The notes under the pieces: generated by a model
The model's input: the letters and a program-made list of their open reading frames with translations, nothing else
What the model was told of the DNA's origin: nothing
Databases searched by the model: none
Source of the DNA: a virus
Reading direction: 5' to 3' (one strand)
Virus genome (UHGV): UHGV-0150949
DNA length: 31,654 nt
Made by a program: the position numbers and the translations under genes
In this document: piece after piece, positions 1,917 to 26,414 of the stretch
Layout of the letters: the number at the start of each line of letters is the position of its first letter
Position numbering within the stretch: the first letter of the stretch is position 1

Positions 1917-2108
1917 ATGACCGATACCAGCCTGATTCCTGAGAAAGAAGTGATGAACAAGCTCGGTGTTTCATCACGTCAGACAATCTGGAACTATACC
2001 AAACGACACGGATTTCCGAAGCCAGTCAGAACCCACCCCAAATCATACCTTCGTGAAGCTGTTGAAGGGTGGATTCTTAACGGTGGCGTTAATCAGAAAT
2101 GCTCCTGA
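1917..2108 (+). CDS. AlpA-family DNA-binding protein / excisionase-like (63 aa)
   Basis: ATG with GGAG 9 nt upstream. Sequence LIPEKEVMNKLGVSSRQTIWNYTKRHGFPKP matches the AlpA/Xis winged-helix pattern (established family). Its 3' end overlaps the integrase 3' end convergently. Confidence 0.75.
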   Translation: MTDTSLIPEKEVMNKLGVSSRQTIWNYTKRHGFPKPVRTHPKSYLREAVEGWILNGGVNQKCS

Positions 2109-3267
2109 TGTGCCAGAACAATTTATCAGCGTGAAGCTCATACGCTTTGCGCTGAGCCTCTATCCAGTCGTGTTTATTGTATACTGACATTATCCCGCCA
2201 AGTTCATGACCGAGCATTCGCTCAGTAACATGAGGCTCGACATTCATCTCGGACAGACGTGTAACAAGCGTTCTTCTGAAATCATGTGTTCGCCAGTAAC
2301 CCAGATCCATCCCTCCCCTTATTCTATTTACGAATCGGTTGGCTGCAGCGATGCTGATCGGTTTGTTTATGTCTTCTCCAGGGAAAAGAACATCATTGTA
2401 CGTTGTCATGGCTTTTTCGAGAAAAGGCTTAATTTGTTCGAAGATTGGACGGCGGATAACATTACCCATCTTGCTATGCTCTTTCGGTACGGTCCATACG
2501 TTGTCCAGCAGGTCAAATTCTGTCTTTGTTGCCAGCCTAAGCTCTGAGAGCCTCGCCCCCCACAGCATAAGCATCTGATGAAGGAGCTTATTTGACGTAG
2601 ACGCACGGCTTCTTTCAATAGCAAGCCAAATCTTAGCCAGTTCGTGATACGACAGTACCCGATCCCCTACCTCAGCGCGGGAGCCGAAGTCCCTTGGTTG
2701 GATGCTCATAATTGCGCAACTATCTATCAACTGACGCCGCATGCACCAACTTATTGCTGATCTTAGTTGACTTAGCACCTGCCTTGCTCGGCGTGGATTA
2801 TCTCTTTCTTCTTCGGTAAGCAGGTCAACCCATTGCTTAACCGTGATAGAAGATGCCGGACGATTAGGAAAGGCGTCATGCATGCGCTTCATAACCGTTG
2901 ATCGGTAAAGTGCCTGGGTCTTTTCTCTGAGAGTTGTAGAGACGTAGTTGTCGAACCAGTAGTCGAGACACTGGGCGACCGTCATGGAGTTCTCCACCTT
3001 CTCTTCAAAATAGGTGCGTGGATCCGTTCCTGAGAAATAGAGCTTTCGCAAGTCAGCAGTGATCTGTCTGGCATCCTTCAAAGACAGGGATGGGTATCGA
3101 CCAAGCCCAAGTCGATTAGGCTTGCCATGCCAGCGATAGCGGTACTGGAACTGGATGACCCCCTTCGGTGAAATTCGTACGCTGAGGCCATCGGCATCAG
3201 CCACTTCTTGTGGGCCCGAATATGGTTTACCATAAATAGTACGCAGTTTTGTGTCGCTTATAGCCAT
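2089..3267 (-). CDS. int: tyrosine integrase, P4-type with N-terminal arm-binding (DUF4102-like) domain
   Basis: 392-aa ORF. N-terminus GLSVRISPKGVIQFQYRYRWHGKPNRLGLGRYPSLSLKDAR and C-terminal RTHDFRRT / HELGG catalytic-region motifs are typical of phage integrases. Confidence 0.93.
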   Translation of the reverse strand: MAISDTKLRTIYGKPYSGPQEVADADGLSVRISPKGVIQFQYRYRWHGKPNRLGLGRYPSLSLKDARQITADLRKLYFSGTDPRTYFEEKVENSMTVAQCLDYWFDNYVSTTLREKTQALYRSTVMKRMHDAFPNRPASSITVKQWVDLLTEEERDNPRRARQVLSQLRSAISWCMRRQLIDSCAIMSIQPRDFGSRAEVGDRVLSYHELAKIWLAIERSRASTSNKLLHQMLMLWGARLSELRLATKTEFDLLDNVWTVPKEHSKMGNVIRRPIFEQIKPFLEKAMTTYNDVLFPGEDINKPISIAAANRFVNRIRGGMDLGYWRTHDFRRTLVTRLSEMNVEPHVTERMLGHELGGIMSVYNKHDWIEAQRKAYELHADKLFWHIRSISD

Positions 3268-4106: not shown

Positions 4107-4313
4107 TCAGTAAGTTGGAGTCATTACCGACAATGCGCAGGAATCACGAAACTCGTTCAGATCAGGCTTATTACCATCGACTTTAACGGCAGTATTTGGC
4201 TTAAAATAAAAACCAGCGCCCCACCCGTTACCGCGCACCTCAATAATGGCAATGCTGTTAATTCCTTTAACCTCTCCACCGTCAAATTTGAAAGCACCGC
4301 TTTCTGTTTTCAT
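4107..4313 (-). CDS. small hypothetical protein (68 aa) downstream of tailspike
   Basis: Track ORF 4107..4352. Start placed at residue 14 ATG with GGAGA about 10 nt upstream. No family recognised. Confidence 0.45.
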
Positions 4314-4314
4314 T

Positions 4315-4500
4315 TTAATCATTCTCCGTAACAGGTTCATTGTGAGCAGCATTTAGTACTCGCTGGAGTGGCTGGTCATTTTCGCGATCTAATTCAGCCT
4401 GTAATGCATTCATTGAAGAATTAAAAGCAGGAACTTCATGACCGCTAAGATTTACGCGAAGCATAAACTGCATGATATTTTGAATAGTTTGCTTATCCAT
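4315..4500 (-). CDS. small hypothetical protein (61 aa) immediately downstream of tailspike
   Basis: Track ORF with AGGA 8 nt upstream of the ATG. Starts 12 nt after the tailspike stop. Confidence 0.5.
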   Translation of the reverse strand: MDKQTIQNIMQFMLRVNLSGHEVPAFNSSMNALQAELDRENDQPLQRVLNAAHNEPVTEND

Positions 4501-4512
4501 TTTATTGTCCTG

Positions 4513-5949
4513 TTAAGTTAAACCAATTAATCCATGCCCGGTTGAAGCATGTAAGTCCTGAATTAATGCTGCAACTACCTTTGCTAAATCTTCGTGAGTT
4601 ATTGTTCCAGAGTTAAATGCTGCTCGGGATACGGTGCCGGTTGGCGATCCCCATCCCGTCCTCCTCTCTGAAATAACTTGATTGCCATTAAGTCGTATTC
4701 TTAAGTTGTTGAAGTTAGCCCAGTTCTCAGCCCTGTTGAAACTCAAATGTGTTGTATTTGCCGGGCCCGTTCCTACCGTAATTCGTTGATTGTCGCCCAT
4801 CAAAATTGCGCAGTTGTTTGAAAATCTAGCTTCAGAAAATGAAATTCCACTCCTAAAATAATTTGTTCTAAATCTAATGCCGTTTGCAGCTCCAGATGAT
4901 AGAGATCCCTCAAGTCTGATGTATTCGCCATTACCTACCTCGGTTAGTTCCTCTGTTGGAGTGGAAATAGAATTACCTCTAAACAACATTCCTGTCCAGA
5001 TATAACCATTTGGAGCTTCACTCCCTCTTCCGATGGTAATCATCTGTGTTACTGGATTGCTTTTATCCTGAGTTACACATACCAACCCTCTTACAGATCC
5101 TTGCAGTGCATTCTCCATCCATCCTTTATCGGGACCTCGATTATTCAGATTAAATTCATGTGCAATAGTGCTAATCGCTCCATTCTGCACTGCATCTCCT
5201 AATACTGCACCATATGACCACCCCCCCCATGTTTCGGCTTGCGGATTTCTTGATTCTCCACGCATGTGGTGACCAATTGAATGCCCATTCCCTCCCTCAT
5301 GCTTAGCAACACTTGTAGTTGTGCATGTATATGCACTTCCTGACACCTTGCGCAAAGAGTTATAAATTACCCCCTGATCCCATCGTTTGATGCCGTCATC
5401 CCTAGTTGCAGAACTAATTTTTTCCAGCCAAATAATGGGATCTGGAATTGGTGTTTCTGGTATGGAGAATCTCTGTCGTGTAGCATTTTTATATATGATA
5501 GTTTCATTGTTATAAATATTGTCACCAGCTGCATCTGAACCAGTCCATCCTGAGCCAGCATAAAAATTCTTAAGTCCATCACCAGACTGTCCAGTCAAAA
5601 CTACTCTTAACTGATCCGGGTCATACTTCAGCACATTTGGGAATTTGAACTGCTGTGCACCATACGCATCATAAACAGCCATAGAATGGCCTTGCTCAGT
5701 TACGAATTTGGCAATCTGTCCGTTATATACAGGGTAACCAGCGGCGTTAATGATGATTGGTTGCGAAACGGGAACATGAGAGCCGTCTTCGTTCTCTACA
5801 TAAACCTGAATCTGGTTTTCAGGATTTACTGGGTCAGTGTCAATTTTACCGATATAAATCTTTCCATTAGCTACGGCTTTAAAAGAACGAGCCATAGTGA
5901 AGAGTTGCGAAGGCATGCTGACTACAACATTGGCTGTAATGTCTGTCAT
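4513..5949 (-). CDS. tailspike protein: P22/Sf6-type N-terminal head-binding domain, divergent shorter C-terminal domain
   Basis: The first roughly 115 aa ([46 protein letters not shown]...VLKYDPDQ) match the P22 gp9 / Sf6 tailspike particle-binding domain as I recall it. The remaining roughly 360 aa are unrelated to the P22 beta-helix as far as I can tell. Confidence 0.9.
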
Positions 5950-6017
5950 TTAATTTGCTCCAGATACAAGGAATCGCCGCAGCATTGCCACAGTGATGCA
6001 TTATTAATCAAACAAAG

Positions 6018-6032
6018 AGACCACTGTGGTCT
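6018..6032. promoter_or_regulatory. candidate Mnt operator (perfect 7-1-7 palindrome AGACCACTGTGGTCT)
   Basis: Palindrome lies in the divergent intergenic region between tailspike and mnt. Resembles the symmetric Mnt operator type of P22 immI. A weaker related palindrome is about 30 bp upstream. Confidence 0.45.
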
Positions 6033-6095
6033 TATTGAGGATGCAACCAGCAGATAATAAGATGCCGATCCACTCACAAAAGCGAGGCATCAAGA

Positions 6096-6347
6096 ATGGG
6101 AAGAGATGACCCGCAATTTAATCTGCGGCTACCTTACGAATTAAAGGAAAAACTAAAACAGCGAGCCAAATCCAATGGCCGCTCTCTTAATTCAGAATTA
6201 GTTCAGATAGTTACTGATGCTGTATCAAAGCCATCCAAAATTTCAGGCTATCGAGACGATGCGGAACGCATCGCTGATGAGCAGTCCGAACTTGTTAAGA
6301 AGATGGTGTTTGATACGCTGAAGGATTTGTACAAAAAACCCACCTGA
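6096..6347 (+). CDS. mnt: Mnt repressor (ribbon-helix-helix, Arc/MetJ superfamily)
   Basis: 83 aa, very close to P22 Mnt as recalled (RDDPQFNLRLPYELKEKLKQRAKSNGRSLNSELVQIV...DEQSELVKKMVFDTLKDLYKK). GAGG RBS 9 nt upstream. Confidence 0.9.
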   Translation: MGRDDPQFNLRLPYELKEKLKQRAKSNGRSLNSELVQIVTDAVSKPSKISGYRDDAERIADEQSELVKKMVFDTLKDLYKKPT

Positions 6348-6446
6348 CGGTGGGTTAATTTTTGCATTTACCTGGGCCATATTGACTACTTATAAAATGA
6401 GATCAATATTTAATCGCCCAATAACGGGTGTATGTTGAGGTATATC

Positions 6447-6626
6447 ATGGCGAAAAAACCAGGTGAAAACACAGGAAAAAACGGCGGAATATACCAAGAA
6501 GTTGGCCCGCGCGGCGGTAAGAAAGACAATTTTGCCACCGTCAAGGACAACGAAAGGCTTCCACCAACAACAAAGCCAGGTCATGGCTGGGTATTAGATA
6601 AGCGAACTCCAGACAGCAAAAAGTAA
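6447..6626 (+). CDS. small basic Gly/Lys-rich protein (59 aa), unknown function
   Basis: Internal ATG (residue 6) of track ORF 6432..6626 with GAGG 6 nt upstream. Followed directly by a terminator hairpin. Confidence 0.55.
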   Translation: MAKKPGENTGKNGGIYQEVGPRGGKKDNFATVKDNERLPPTTKPGHGWVLDKRTPDSKK

Positions 6627-6630
6627 TAAT

Positions 6631-6656
6631 CAAGCCGGATCACTCCGGCTTTTTGA
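6631..6656. terminator. bidirectional intrinsic terminator (agccgga-tcac-tccggct)
   Basis: 7-bp stem with T-runs on both sides, between the convergent genes 6447..6626 (+) and 6640..7005 (-). Confidence 0.6.
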
Positions 6657-7005
6657 TATGTCGCTCGCAGAACTCAACAAGCCTGCTCATTAAGTAGCAG
6701 TAAGTCTCGTTGGCTCTTCCTGGTTCAACATCAACACCGACCCTTGAGCAGATATCGAATGCCATGTGAGCGCACTCATGGGCAATAGTAGATAGTTTGC
6801 CATTGAACACGCCTATCACATGCAAAACACCATTCTCGCTACTCATTGTATGAGACGCTCCGTTGGCGTCCGAGTCATGCACGTCAACGCCAAGTTTTTG
6901 ATGCAGGCGTTGCCATTCTGGAAAGTCTCTACAAAACACAATTGTACCGCTCTCAAAGAGCGGTACTAGCATCTTTGGTACGTTTCCAATGTTAACTTTT
7001 TTCAT
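6640..7005 (-). CDS. small HExxH-motif protein (121 aa), putative zinc metallopeptidase-like
   Basis: Track ORF. Contains HECAHM. AGGA 4 nt upstream of the ATG. No confident family assignment. Confidence 0.6.
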   Translation of the reverse strand: MKKVNIGNVPKMLVPLFESGTIVFCRDFPEWQRLHQKLGVDVHDSDANGASHTMSSENGVLHVIGVFNGKLSTIAHECAHMAFDICSRVGVDVEPGRANETYCYLMSRLVEFCERHIKKPE

Positions 7006-7039
7006 GGTATCCTGCGCAAAACTAAGGAGAGTTAATTAT

Positions 7040-7525
7040 ATGAAAAAATCACTGTTAATTATCCCGCTTCTGCTGGCTGGGTGCGCAAAAGTAAGCGACT
7101 ATCAGGCAAGTTGCGAGCAACGCTATCCAAAGCTTAGCGATATGGCTAATTGCCTTGATGCCAGCTTGAAGAACGACTCTCGCATGGCATCAGCACCAAC
7201 ACCTAAGCTGTATGTCCTTGCTGCGAAGATGCTCGGGCAAGGTGTCGATGAAGGCAAGATAAGTGACACACAGGCAAGACTTGAACTTCAGAATCTTTAT
7301 GTTCAATTACAAAGCCAAGAACAAGCCCAACAAATAGCGCAAAGCCAAGCATTCCAGCAGGCTTTATTGAATTATCAGGCTGTAAACACAATGCAAGCGA
7401 TCGAGCAAAAAGCGCGCCAGCCTGTTATAACTCAACCTTACCCAACACGCGTTGACACATATACAAACTGCAATTCAGGATTTGGAAACACGGTAACATG
7501 CAACAGTAGCAGTAATATCAGGTAG
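7040..7525 (+). CDS. lipoprotein (161 aa) with Q-rich coiled-coil-like region
   Basis: Internal ATG (residue 18) of track ORF 6989..7525, preceded by AAGGAGA. N-terminus MKKSLLIIPLLLAGC is a signal peptide with an LAGC lipobox. Antisense to the late operon. Confidence 0.7.
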   Translation: MKKSLLIIPLLLAGCAKVSDYQASCEQRYPKLSDMANCLDASLKNDSRMASAPTPKLYVLAAKMLGQGVDEGKISDTQARLELQNLYVQLQSQEQAQQIAQSQAFQQALLNYQAVNTMQAIEQKARQPVITQPYPTRVDTYTNCNSGFGNTVTCNSSSNIR

Positions 7526-7539
7526 TTATATCTTATCTT

Positions 7540-9387
7540 TTATTGCTGTTCTGCTGTAATTTGGCTTGAAAGTATAGGGCGTATCGCATTTGCAGCATTA
7601 TTTAGCGCTCTTTCATAGGCTGGCGTTCCTGCTTTGGTGTTTGCCAAACGTAAGAGAGCATTCCTTGCTGCTTTGGACTCATACAAGCGCATCATTGCAC
7701 CGAAACCAGCCTCAAGCCCCATTGATACGCCAAGAGTCGCAGTTGCGCCAATCGTCCTTATCCTGTTGGCTTGCGATTGCCCCGTCTGAGTTACTACATT
7801 TGCGGTGTCTGACCTTGCTGTTTGCTGTAGAACTTCATGAAGAGCATCAAGCTCTTTCATGTGCTTTCCAGAAAAAATAGTGTTGTAAATTTCACCGCCT
7901 GACTGAGATTTCAGCTTATTAACTTCAGTGATGAACTTGGCTGGAGAGTCACCGGATTTTTCCGCTATTTTGCTGACGTAAGCTGCACGCATAGCATCTT
8001 TCCCTTTATCATCCAATGCGCTCCAGATTCGTTTCACGTCAGATGGTTTTCTGCTTAATACAACGGTATTTATAAGTTCAGGACTGGCTTCACTGCTTGC
8101 CTTGTTGAGCTTGTTAGCAATGTTTTTATTAAGCACCTTATTATAAACGTTTGCATAATCGGAATTTGCTTTAAGGTATTTTGCTGCGTCTGATGCACCG
8201 AGGTTTTTAGCAACTGCGTTACGAAGGTCTTTTGACATTGCATTCTCTACCATATTGGTAGCTGCTTTTGCCTGGTTGGGGAAGACCATAGCATCTCCCT
8301 GAACATTAGATCTAAATGCTGTTCTGTGCTGACGCAAGAGATCAAACGTAACATCCAAATCAGTTGCAGGGTTTGCTAATTCTTCACGTAGGTTACGCAA
8401 GGATGTAAGCAGGCTTTGATTGGCAGATGTCCCAAGCCGTTCCTGTCTTGCGATCGCTGTATTCAGAGCATTCATGGTATTTGTGGTATCAACTGAGGCA
8501 TTACCCATTTTATTGGTGACGTCATTGATAACAGCGCCAGCGGCATCCTTCCGCCCCCTTAACGTGGTGGTCAGAGATTTCACCACATCATCAGGGTTGT
8601 ACTCACCAAAACGGTCAAAATAATTACTTACCAGCTTACTACGCGTTGCATATTGCTCAGCTCGCTTTGAGCCTGTCCCGAGCAAAGCCCCCTCGGCATC
8701 CTGAGTAAGGCCACGAGTGAAAGCATTTTTCGGTGGGATGACATCAGATGTCATTGGCGTCACACCCATTGATTCTGAGGTGGCAATTTTTTTCGCTACT
8801 TCTGGCGCGATATCGCCTTTTATAGCCGTTATTCCACGCCCTATTCCCTTTGCTGCTGCGGAAAGAACACCCTGAGCGGCAAGGTTAACTCCGGCATTTA
8901 TGGCTGCATTTTGCGCGAAATCACCTTTCTGGTTTGCGGCTTCTGCCAGTGATCCAATAGCCATGCTTCCTGCCGTTCCAACTCCTGGAACTAAATACCC
9001 GCCAATTGTTTCTCCAGCTTGCGCATAAGGGTCTGTCGGTCGATCGACAGGGCGATAAACATCATCCAAAACCTTGGGGCCACCAAGCCCCTGGCTGATT
9101 GCATTAATCAGACTTGCGCCACCCTGCAATACGTCAAATGGTATGTTTACCAGACCACGACCAGCCTGTTCTGCAATTTGCCCTGCACTTTGAGCACCTG
9201 TGAGCCAATCGCCAGCTTGTTGCATCAATGATGGTTCTTCACGTGCTGGTTCATTATTGGCCTGATTAACTGTTTGTTGCTGAACAGCCTGACCAGCAAA
9301 ATACTCATCAATGGCGGTGCCAATATCTTCCGTGCTCGTACCATCAGGGAAGGTAAATGTCTTACCGTTTGCAGTTACTTTCATCAT
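7540..9387 (-). CDS. DNA ejection/transfer protein, P22 gp16-like
   Basis: 615 aa, in the gp16 position and of gp16-like size (last gene of the ejection-protein triad). Confidence 0.8.
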
Positions 9388-25405: not shown

Positions 25406-25692
25406 GACTTAATCTTCCCCTCCTTCAGCAGTATCGCCTGCGTCCTGATCACGCCTTCGAGGTGGTAAAGTCTGGCGTCTTTGTTGTCGAGAATCCGGGT
25501 GCGTCGGTCGATCTCCGCGTGGCAGTCACTACAAGCCCATGCGCCGATCAGGTCGTCAGGCTTCATTCCCGTTCCGCAAATTCCAGCCATCCGGTAATGT
25601 GCCAGAACTGTGGTTTCAGGATTGCCATTGCATACGCCGTAAATACGTACCTGGCATTCTCTTCCGCGCGCTTCTTTGCGTAGGTTAGCCAT
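25402..25692 (-). CDS. YbcO-like Cys-rich nin-region protein (DUF1364-type)
   Basis: 96 aa. Resembles DLP12 YbcO as recalled (RGRECQVRIYGVCNGNPETTVLAHYR...CSDCHAEIDRR). Confidence 0.75.
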   Translation of the reverse strand: MANLRKEARGRECQVRIYGVCNGNPETTVLAHYRMAGICGTGMKPDDLIGAWACSDCHAEIDRRTRILDNKDARLYHLEGVIRTQAILLKEGKIKS

Positions 25693-26414
25693 TAAGCAGC
25701 CTCCCCTGTTACTTTCAGCATTCCGTTATCGAGCAGCTTTCTGGTCAGCCACTGTTGACCACGCCCGGTGATTTTTGTGGTGAACGATATCTGTATTCCG
25801 TGATTTGTGTTGACCGCTGTTTCTTTCACTGTGAAATAGCCGCGATCCATATATTCCTGCATTGGCACATTGCGCCGGGAACCTGAAGCAATAAGGATTT
25901 TGTGATCGCGCATCCACGCAAACAGTTTGTTTGGACCAATTCCAACAACCTTTGCATAGTTTCCAATCAAAATTCCGCTGGCCTCGCCAACGCGATCGGC
26001 AAACTCAACTTTAGGTGCGGCAATTGCGAGCTGGTTTTCCAGTTGCATTTTCTGCTCAGCAAGATCAGCAGCAAGGCGCAACGCTTCTGGTAGCGTTTTG
26101 GGGATATTAACCGCAGTTTCTTCAAGCTCTCGCCAACGGTCAACAAGACGAGCGGTGAATTCCGGCGACAACTGGGCTACAACGACAATACTGTCTCGCT
26201 TTCCTTGTTCGCCTTCGAATGCATACACACAAAAACTTTGATTTAAGCCTAACCCATTGATTCTTCCACAATCCTCAATTTGAGGAAGCCGGATAACACC
26301 ATTCTTAGCCAGCGTTTCGATGGTACGTTTCACATTGTCATGACGCTTACCCACCAACTCAGCGATTTCAATGCTTGTCATTTTGATGGCATTGCCATTT
26401 ATTAACTCATTCAT
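25692..26414 (-). CDS. phage regulatory protein: Rha-like N-terminus with antirepressor KilAC-type C-terminus
   Basis: 240 aa. N-terminus TSIEIAELVGKRHDNVKRTIETL is Rha-family-like. C-terminal half resembles KilAC/Ant domains. Confidence 0.75.
   Translation of the reverse strand: MNELINGNAIKMTSIEIAELVGKRHDNVKRTIETLAKNGVIRLPQIEDCGRINGLGLNQSFCVYAFEGEQGKRDSIVVVAQLSPEFTARLVDRWRELEETAVNIPKTLPEALRLAADLAEQKMQLENQLAIAAPKVEFADRVGEASGILIGNYAKVVGIGPNKLFAWMRDHKILIASGSRRNVPMQEYMDRGYFTVKETAVNTNHGIQISFTTKITGRGQQWLTRKLLDNGMLKVTGEAA

Follow-up and report, generated by a model that had tools for sequence, protein, structure and literature searches.

The window, by which we mean the whole stretch of viral DNA that was analyzed (31,654 nucleotides, UHGV-0150949), is a P22-like (Lederbergvirus) genome in phage order. 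The integrase gene (2089-3267), the tailspike gene (4513-5949) and, starting at 7540, the homologs of genes 16 and 20, which are injection genes of the late operon, all lie on the minus strand. The 478-residue tailspike begins with a P22-type head-binding domain (residues 1 to 113; Pfam Head_binding PF09008, E value of 3.6e-65), and the part beyond this domain matched no Pfam family and none among the best 25 PHROG families. It is a short tailspike, followed by two small minus-strand ORFs of 61 and 81 codons (4315-4500 and 4107-4352) without a family match. Between gene 16 and the tailspike gene (gene 9), on the strand opposite the late operon as is typical of the Mnt family, lies mnt (6096-6347, plus strand), which encodes 83 residues and whose ATG is separated from the tailspike start codon at 5949 by 146 bp. 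A bidirectional intrinsic terminator (6337-6356), homologs of which are annotated in epsilon34 and L, marks the end of mnt, and a terminator scan yielded a second bidirectional terminator at 6632-6651. Three further "ant moron" ORFs are found beyond mnt: an orf59a-like ORF of 59 codons (6447-6626, plus strand, phrog_3202), an hkcC-like ORF of 121 codons (6640-7005, minus strand, phrog_1365) and an ORF of 178 codons (6989-7525, plus strand, phrog_6067) whose product has an N terminus that by eye resembles a lipoprotein signal. This set differs from that of the Gally prophage.

The preliminary description of this DNA had assigned 6096-6347 to a P22-type Mnt repressor, and family and structure matches bear this out. 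Residues 3 to 50 match Pfam Arc (PF03869; E value of 2.8e-22, 78.8 bits versus a cutoff of 20.4), corresponding to the Arc-like ribbon-helix-helix DNA-binding domain found at the N terminus of Mnt proteins, and residues 53 to 80 match Pfam Repressor_Mnt (PF11423; E value of 2.2e-18, 66 bits versus a cutoff of 20.9), corresponding to their C-terminal coiled-coil tetramerization domain. The protein also matches PDB 1mnt (E value of 2.8e-34), and 27 of the 31 residues aligned with the tetramerization domain in PDB 1qey are identical by a hand count from the alignment. Identity to P22 Mnt is 76%. A ribosome-binding site, GAGG (6084-6087, plus strand), is located 8 nt before the ATG and is conserved in the alignment of relatives. 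The recognition strand reads GRDDPQFNLRLP, with Gln6 where P22 has His6. The specificity of Mnt is reportedly set by N-terminal residues, and its DNA-facing residues are Arg2, His6, Asn8 and Arg10; among these, the window Mnt differs at residue 6 alone, by a His to Gln change.

As the preliminary description had also noted, arc and ant are missing. Neither lies between mnt and the tailspike gene, the 146-bp spacer being too small for arc plus sar; tblastn queries with the P22 and Kapi1 Arc proteins matched mnt alone, and no ant homolog was found within 3 kb of mnt. The locus therefore lacks the components of a functional immI, namely ant under Pant together with arc and sar, and has the arrangement of the mnt-only ant moron of the ST64T/ST104/L type, with mnt divergent from and adjoining the tailspike gene. 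Such mnt-only morons have been published for ST64T, ST104 and Para1 (Villafane 2008) and for phage L (Zaworski 2020), and the layout is known and common among P22-like phages. The same mnt-tailspike junction is present in ST160, SE1, Gally and vB_EcoP-720R6, as well as in 112 of 5,426 complete Escherichia coli genomes, including that of LF82, the host of Gally. The phage does have a gene of the antirepressor family: its nin region (25692-26414, minus strand) encodes a 240-residue protein with a Phage_pRha domain and a KilAC/ANT "antirepressor" domain (PF03374, E value of 1.8e-32). This protein is the counterpart of the product of a Gally gene named "anti-repressor protein Roi" by Misson et al., and no Mnt operator was found near its gene.

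Comparison with the immI region of P22 (mnt, Omnt, Pmnt/Pant, arc, sar, ant) revealed extensive correspondence. The two loci agree in gene family, in position between genes 16 and 9, in orientation opposite the late operon, in operator-promoter geometry and in the operator core, CCAC-N-GTGG, and the tetramerization domain and downstream genes are near-identical. However, P22 has arc, sar, ant and t-ant, while the window lacks all four and its Pant has decayed. The stretch lost relative to P22 begins at the arc ribosome-binding site and extends to a point some 52 bp upstream of gene 9; in its place, between tailspike leader and operator, is a junction filler of ∼24 bp (5994-6017); the corresponding P22 segment measures about 1.3 kb and contains arc, sar, ant and t-ant. 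The filler is shorter in ST160 and ST64T. The Salmonella phages ST64T, ST104, L, SE1 and ST160 likewise have mnt beside gene 9 and no arc or ant, and share with the window the first 18 Mnt residues, the operator core and the promoter. The window differs from these phages in a junction filler that is 13 bp longer, an E. coli-type tailspike and a P22-like C-terminal half of Mnt; in ST64T and L, by contrast, the Mnt C terminus is divergent. Close relatives are Gally, from E. coli LF82, and phage vB_EcoP-720R6, the Mnt proteins of which are 100% identical to that of the window and the DNA of which is 97.7-98.4% identical over window positions 5800-6355 (tailspike start, spacer and mnt), but which differ from it in the genes between mnt and gene 16 and in the receptor-binding part of the tailspike.

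The spacer contains the perfect 15-bp palindrome that the preliminary description had put forward as a natural operator candidate. This sequence, AGACCACTGTGGTCT (AGACCAC-T-GTGGTCT, half-site GTGGTCT), is located at 6018-6032, and we designate it a class B Mnt operator. Four perfect 7+1+7 palindromes were observed in the window versus 2.1 expected, and about 0.01 perfect 15-bp palindromes are expected by chance in the 146-bp spacer. The palindrome alone is an insufficient argument, and its significance comes from position and conservation. By position it is the homolog of P22 Omnt (AGGTCCAC-C-GTGGACCT; the footprinted P22 operator is AGGTCCACCGTGGACCT): in both the window and P22, the operator center lies 10 bp before the first base of the −35 element, the operator ends about 1-2 bp before the −35 element of the mnt promoter and ATTGAG follows. 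A dyad operator just upstream of the repressor's own −35 element, as is characteristic of the Mnt family, is kept in 98 loci among the matches listed. Its arms are near-invariant, its central base varies (T, G, C or A) and its flanks drift; the arms are conserved together with the promoter hexamers across 26 distinct upstream sequences. Pattern searches allowing up to three mismatches, run on the window and on the complete Gally and ST64T genomes, found no further copy of the operator.

Alternatively, the palindrome could have arisen by chance, or could act in RNA as a hairpin or terminator without being bound by a protein. Such palindromes arise by chance about twice per window, and the terminator scan lists this one on the minus strand, where it is followed by the T-rich tail CTTTGTTTGA. 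The T tract is not conserved, however, being missing in phages of the ST160 and ST64T type, and the position and core of the palindrome are homologous to the footprinted P22 operator. Moreover, it is the arm sequence itself that is conserved, beyond complementarity, and the rare changes in the arms are uncompensated, which argues for a protein site and against a hairpin. We therefore regard this already disfavored explanation as extremely improbable.

The preliminary description had further proposed a degenerate second copy of the operator in the spacer, which our searches did not recover, as nothing else in the window matches the operator within three mismatches. The look-alike TTGCCACAGTGATGC (5986-6000) agrees with it at 8 of 14 specified positions, and its CCAC..GTG core is lost in relatives. 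This look-alike overlaps an inverted repeat in the tailspike leader that is also present in P22, epsilon34 and HK620, where it lies far from the operators of those phages. The repeat (5977-5993, minus strand) reads CUGUGGC-AAU-GCUGCGG in the tailspike mRNA and CCGCAGC-ATT-GCCACAG on the plus strand, with 7-bp arms and a 3-nt loop, and lies some 15 nt upstream of GGAG (5961-5958), the ribosome-binding site of the tailspike gene; this site and the start codon (5949-5947) are near-identical to those of P22. The repeat may form a hairpin in the tailspike mRNA: in the RNAalifold consensus, 91% of cells are paired in the hairpin, and its covariation is not above that of shuffles. Besides P22 (locus L003, region 2441-2457), epsilon34 and HK620, the repeat is common to mnt-only phages (see also L005 and L004), and it has been removed by an 11-bp deletion in L117, L120 and L126. 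P22 (L003) additionally has a 17-bp direct repeat, TGGCTACGGTGAATTTT, at 2451-2467 and 2560-2576; the two copies, one of which contains an arm of the leader repeat, are separated by 109 bp that lie immediately upstream of gene 9 and beside the ant terminator.

We next compared Mnt recognition strands with operators in 172 loci drawn from one-genome-per-species bacterial contigs and from viral contigs, to which more were added by an exact operator scan. All Mnts with the GRDDPQFNLRLP strand have GACCAC-N-GTGGTC located 61-65 bp before the ATG (57 loci in the first set; 98 loci, representing 47 distinct contexts, among the matches listed in the extended set). All ARDDPHFNFRMP Mnts (His6) that are flanked by arc and ant have GGTCCAC-N-GTGGACC. 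In a third class, with the strand YDEAQFHLRL (Sf101, IME10, VSe13; loci L007-L009, L015 and L017-L019), (G/A)TACC-N5-GGTAC occupies the same position, and this class is also mnt-only. Mnt-like proteins of Erwinia, Pantoea and Citrobacter (L020, L022 and L024) are associated with one to three copies of CCCCAC-C-GTGGGG, some adjoining ant. P22 thus combines His6 with GTGGACC, which is also the optimum half-site measured for P22 Mnt (PMC2726951), whereas the window combines Gln6 with GTGGTCT, in a DNA-binding module that is 53-63% identical to that of P22 at the DNA level. The shift in half-site from GTGGACC to GTGGTCT tracks a single recognition-strand change, His6 to Gln6. On this comparative evidence, we conclude that the palindrome is, in all likelihood, a true Mnt operator that represents a second class of specificity, and the covariation of recognition strand and half-site supports the prediction that an Mnt tetramer binds 6018-6032 sequence specifically. 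Together with the positional homology to P22 Omnt, the same covariation lends good support to the earlier proposals that the palindrome is a natural operator candidate and that the locus is an immI remnant.

Some loci in the collection depart from these patterns. In relatives from Symbiopectobacterium and Providencia, one operator half is degenerate. In L144-L147 and L164, mnt is of the His6 type, the 130 bp upstream contain no GGTCCAC operator and a palindrome, AAGTTAGAGATACTAACTT, is located 11 bp before the mnt ATG. An ant gene 56% identical to that of P22 lies about 800 bp off in L144-L147, where no clear arc was seen; the L164 sequence ends about 190 bp upstream of mnt.

Alignment of the window with P22 revealed a mosaic joint inside mnt (6246-6276, plus strand), with identity to P22 of 53-63% on the left side and 91-98% on the right side. 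Specifically, DNA identity is 53% upstream of mnt, 63% over codons 1 to 50, 91% over codons 51 to 83 and 98% downstream. The operator, the promoter and the DNA-binding domain lie to the left of the joint, and the tetramerization coil and the downstream genes lie to the right. The operator, promoter and DNA-binding domain form one mosaic module. In ST64T, the pattern seen at the P22 joint is reversed relative to the window, the ST64T mnt having a window-like N terminus and a divergent C terminus.

The mnt reading frame is intact in 58 of the 58 loci checked that encode the N terminus GRDDPQFNLRLP. Compared with the ST160 allele, that of the window has 18 synonymous and 9 nonsynonymous changes (dN/dS of 0.12), and between the window and ST64T the recognition strand is identical with synonymous sites saturated. 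As judged from these substitutions, mnt is under purifying selection (dN/dS of about 0.1), which shows that Mnt still does something useful. These data bear on the view that the locus is a decaying, functionless remnant of immI, which is one of two options given by Zaworski et al. for phage L. The loss of arc, ant, sar and Pant would fit such decay, as would the degenerate operator half in the Symbiopectobacterium and Providencia relatives and the observations on Gally, in which LB cultures show background mnt expression and deleting the gene produced no phenotype in the single assay performed. Against decay stand the dN/dS of about 0.1 and the 58 intact frames, the retention of operator arms and promoter hexamers over 26 distinct upstream sequences while the center base and flanks drift, and the recurrence of the same junction in 112 complete E. 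coli genomes and in Salmonella phages. We consider decay very unlikely.

An orphan repressor under purifying selection needs a target, and that target might be supplied in trans. Silencing of ant in lysogens is the role of P22 Mnt; by analogy, Mnt from the prophage could silence the ant promoter of incoming related phages and so shield the prophage's own repressor, with the cis operator setting the level of Mnt. Other Mnt classes do adjoin ant genes. However, arc or ant is present at 0 of the 98 loci of the window Mnt class among the matches listed. At least 119 viral contigs carry the exact operator, and of these 46 have it adjoining mnt and 0 of the 73 others have it adjoining arc or ant, again among the matches listed. 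In addition, phage L, which has the same recognition strand, was reported on genetic grounds to be without immI function. A role in trans immunity therefore seems to us rather unlikely.

Two P22 promoters have counterparts in the spacer. The homolog of Pmnt (6035-6063, plus strand) consists of a −35 element, TTGAGG (6035-6040), a 17-bp spacer and a −10 element, TAAGAT (6058-6063). It scores 10.5 with a position weight matrix (PWM), in the top 0.003% of window positions, compared to 13.1 for P22 Pmnt (TTGAGA-17-TATCAT), and falls below the threshold of the simple scan (8/12 matches). The equivalent of Pant, located by its constant offset from P22 Pant (TTGACA-17-TATATT), lies at 6040-6068 on the minus strand, with a −35 element of TCGGCA (6068-6063) and a −10 element of TGCATC (6045-6040). 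Scored by hand with the same matrix, TCGGCA-17-TGCATC reaches about −4 versus 15.5 for P22 Pant; it is absent from the best leftward matches and would be nonfunctional by the sigma-70 consensus. No leftward promoter toward the tailspike gene was found by the simple scan; the PWM scan gave weak sites, and the best leftward sigma-70 match, at 4.9 (top 0.14% of window positions), is unremarkable on a scoring scheme that is blind to activator-dependent or alternative-sigma promoters. Thus, of the earlier statement that the promoter region reads directly into the tailspike, the geometry stands, with no terminator between the operator and the tailspike gene, but a credible leftward promoter is lacking.

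These observations are relevant to the suggestion in the preliminary description that Mnt was repurposed to control the tailspike in lysogens. Mnt bound at 6018-6032 could repress or gate leftward transcription, either from a residual promoter at the old Pant position or as a roadblock to transcripts coming from upstream. The idea is not new: Villafane et al. (2008) had already suggested a possible effect of Mnt and Arc on transcripts reading through into gene 9. A terminator-free stretch of 68 bp separates the operator from the start codon of the tailspike gene. A weak leftward candidate, TTTTGT-16-TATTAT, has its −10 element at 6059-6054 (TATGAT in ST160), which would place the transcription start about 15 nt ahead of the operator. 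Secondary tailspike promoters have been reported in BTP1 (Owen et al. 2020).

Expression data for the Gally prophage of E. coli LF82, for which RNA-seq and an mnt deletion have been reported (Misson et al. 2023), can be read in both directions. In LB, Gally mnt does not rise above background, and in macrophages its expression increases 40-fold; mnt, the tailspike gene and three neighboring (moron) genes are up 6- to 40-fold in cell-culture medium and macrophages, while expression of the gene 16 homolog just upstream is flat. The rise in tailspike RNA while the gene 16 homolog stays flat means that some transcription independent of the late operon enters the tailspike gene, a point in favor of tailspike control in lysogens. 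An equally plausible source of the tailspike RNA is GALLYPH_14, which is strongly induced and could be read through. However, across the five conditions (BLB, B1, B6, MB1 and MB6), tailspike RNA (mean log2 of 3.9, 4.9, 5.65, 6.7 and 7.8) rises together with mnt RNA (3.7, 5.7, 7.0, 9.0 and 8.4), not inversely to it, and the mnt deletion left macrophage survival unchanged in one assay.

The organization of relatives also speaks against tailspike control. The distance between operator and mnt is invariant, whereas in seven relatives the operator is accompanied by a stub of the old tailspike start, after which come a 270-bp AT-rich insert and a different tailspike gene. In this variant (L128, 2575-2860; also L110, L129-L132 and L137), the operator, the old leader and the first codons precede about 270 bp of AT-rich DNA; the insert contains a 60-codon ORF, and the different tailspike gene beyond it has its own leader. 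Such loci bear the scar of a tailspike module replacement. Retention of the operator where the tailspike has been replaced indicates that the operator stays with mnt and not with the tailspike. With the Pant equivalent dead, the best leftward match unremarkable and the Gally RNAs rising together, repurposing of Mnt for tailspike control is unsupported, and we judge it unlikely, if still worth weighing.

The reading that we favor, with a probability of roughly 60%, is that the locus is a conserved, self-contained and probably autoregulated orphan mnt cassette with its own operator. On the basis of homology, tetrameric Mnt would use its N-terminal β-strand to bind the single dyad operator at 6018-6032. 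The promoter that Mnt represses in P22, Pant, has decayed, and arc, sar and ant are gone. The mnt promoter is then the only visible cis target left, so that the operator most likely serves mnt autoregulation. In P22, Mnt bound at Omnt reportedly does not repress Pmnt; it stimulates this promoter, largely because it shuts off Pant, which competes with Pmnt. A locus that has lost Pant does not obviously require an operator, and autoregulation should thus be taken as no more than the default role. The tailspike would be expressed from antiterminated late transcripts that pass the terminators at 6632-6651 and 6337-6356, rather than from an Mnt-controlled promoter. Transcripts from the mnt promoter would run antisense to the late operon, as does STnc6030, which the BTP1 prophage expresses at the gene 16/tailspike junction (Owen et al. 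2020). STnc6030 differs in that it is a noncoding, base-pairing superinfection-exclusion factor.

As the layout is ordinary and already published, little changes for phage genomics. The Villafane 2008 and Zaworski 2020 papers do not describe an operator for the mnt-only phages, and our literature search found the class B operator sequence in no paper, with one unrelated primer match. What may thus be new are details that add to a known system, namely the assignment of the operator, the classes of specificity and the evidence that mnt is under purifying selection. Tailspike transcription in Gally is up about 20-fold inside macrophages, together with mnt, and one could imagine that the Mnt-operator pair is kept for tuning an environment-responsive, late-operon-independent transcription of the tailspike in lysogens. 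We find this doubtful; if true, an O-antigen-acting virion enzyme would be a prophage-expressed accessory function, placed under a repressor inherited from a lost antirepressor circuit.

With gene, promoter and operator all constrained, the mnt-only cassette is not a decaying remnant, and this constraint sharpens the question of what an antirepressor-less Mnt is for. The natural series formed by His6 with GTGGACC, Gln6 with GTGGTCT, Tyr2/Gln6/His8 with TGGTAC and others with GTGGGG could, in turn, be a ready-made data set on β-strand DNA recognition in a classic model repressor.
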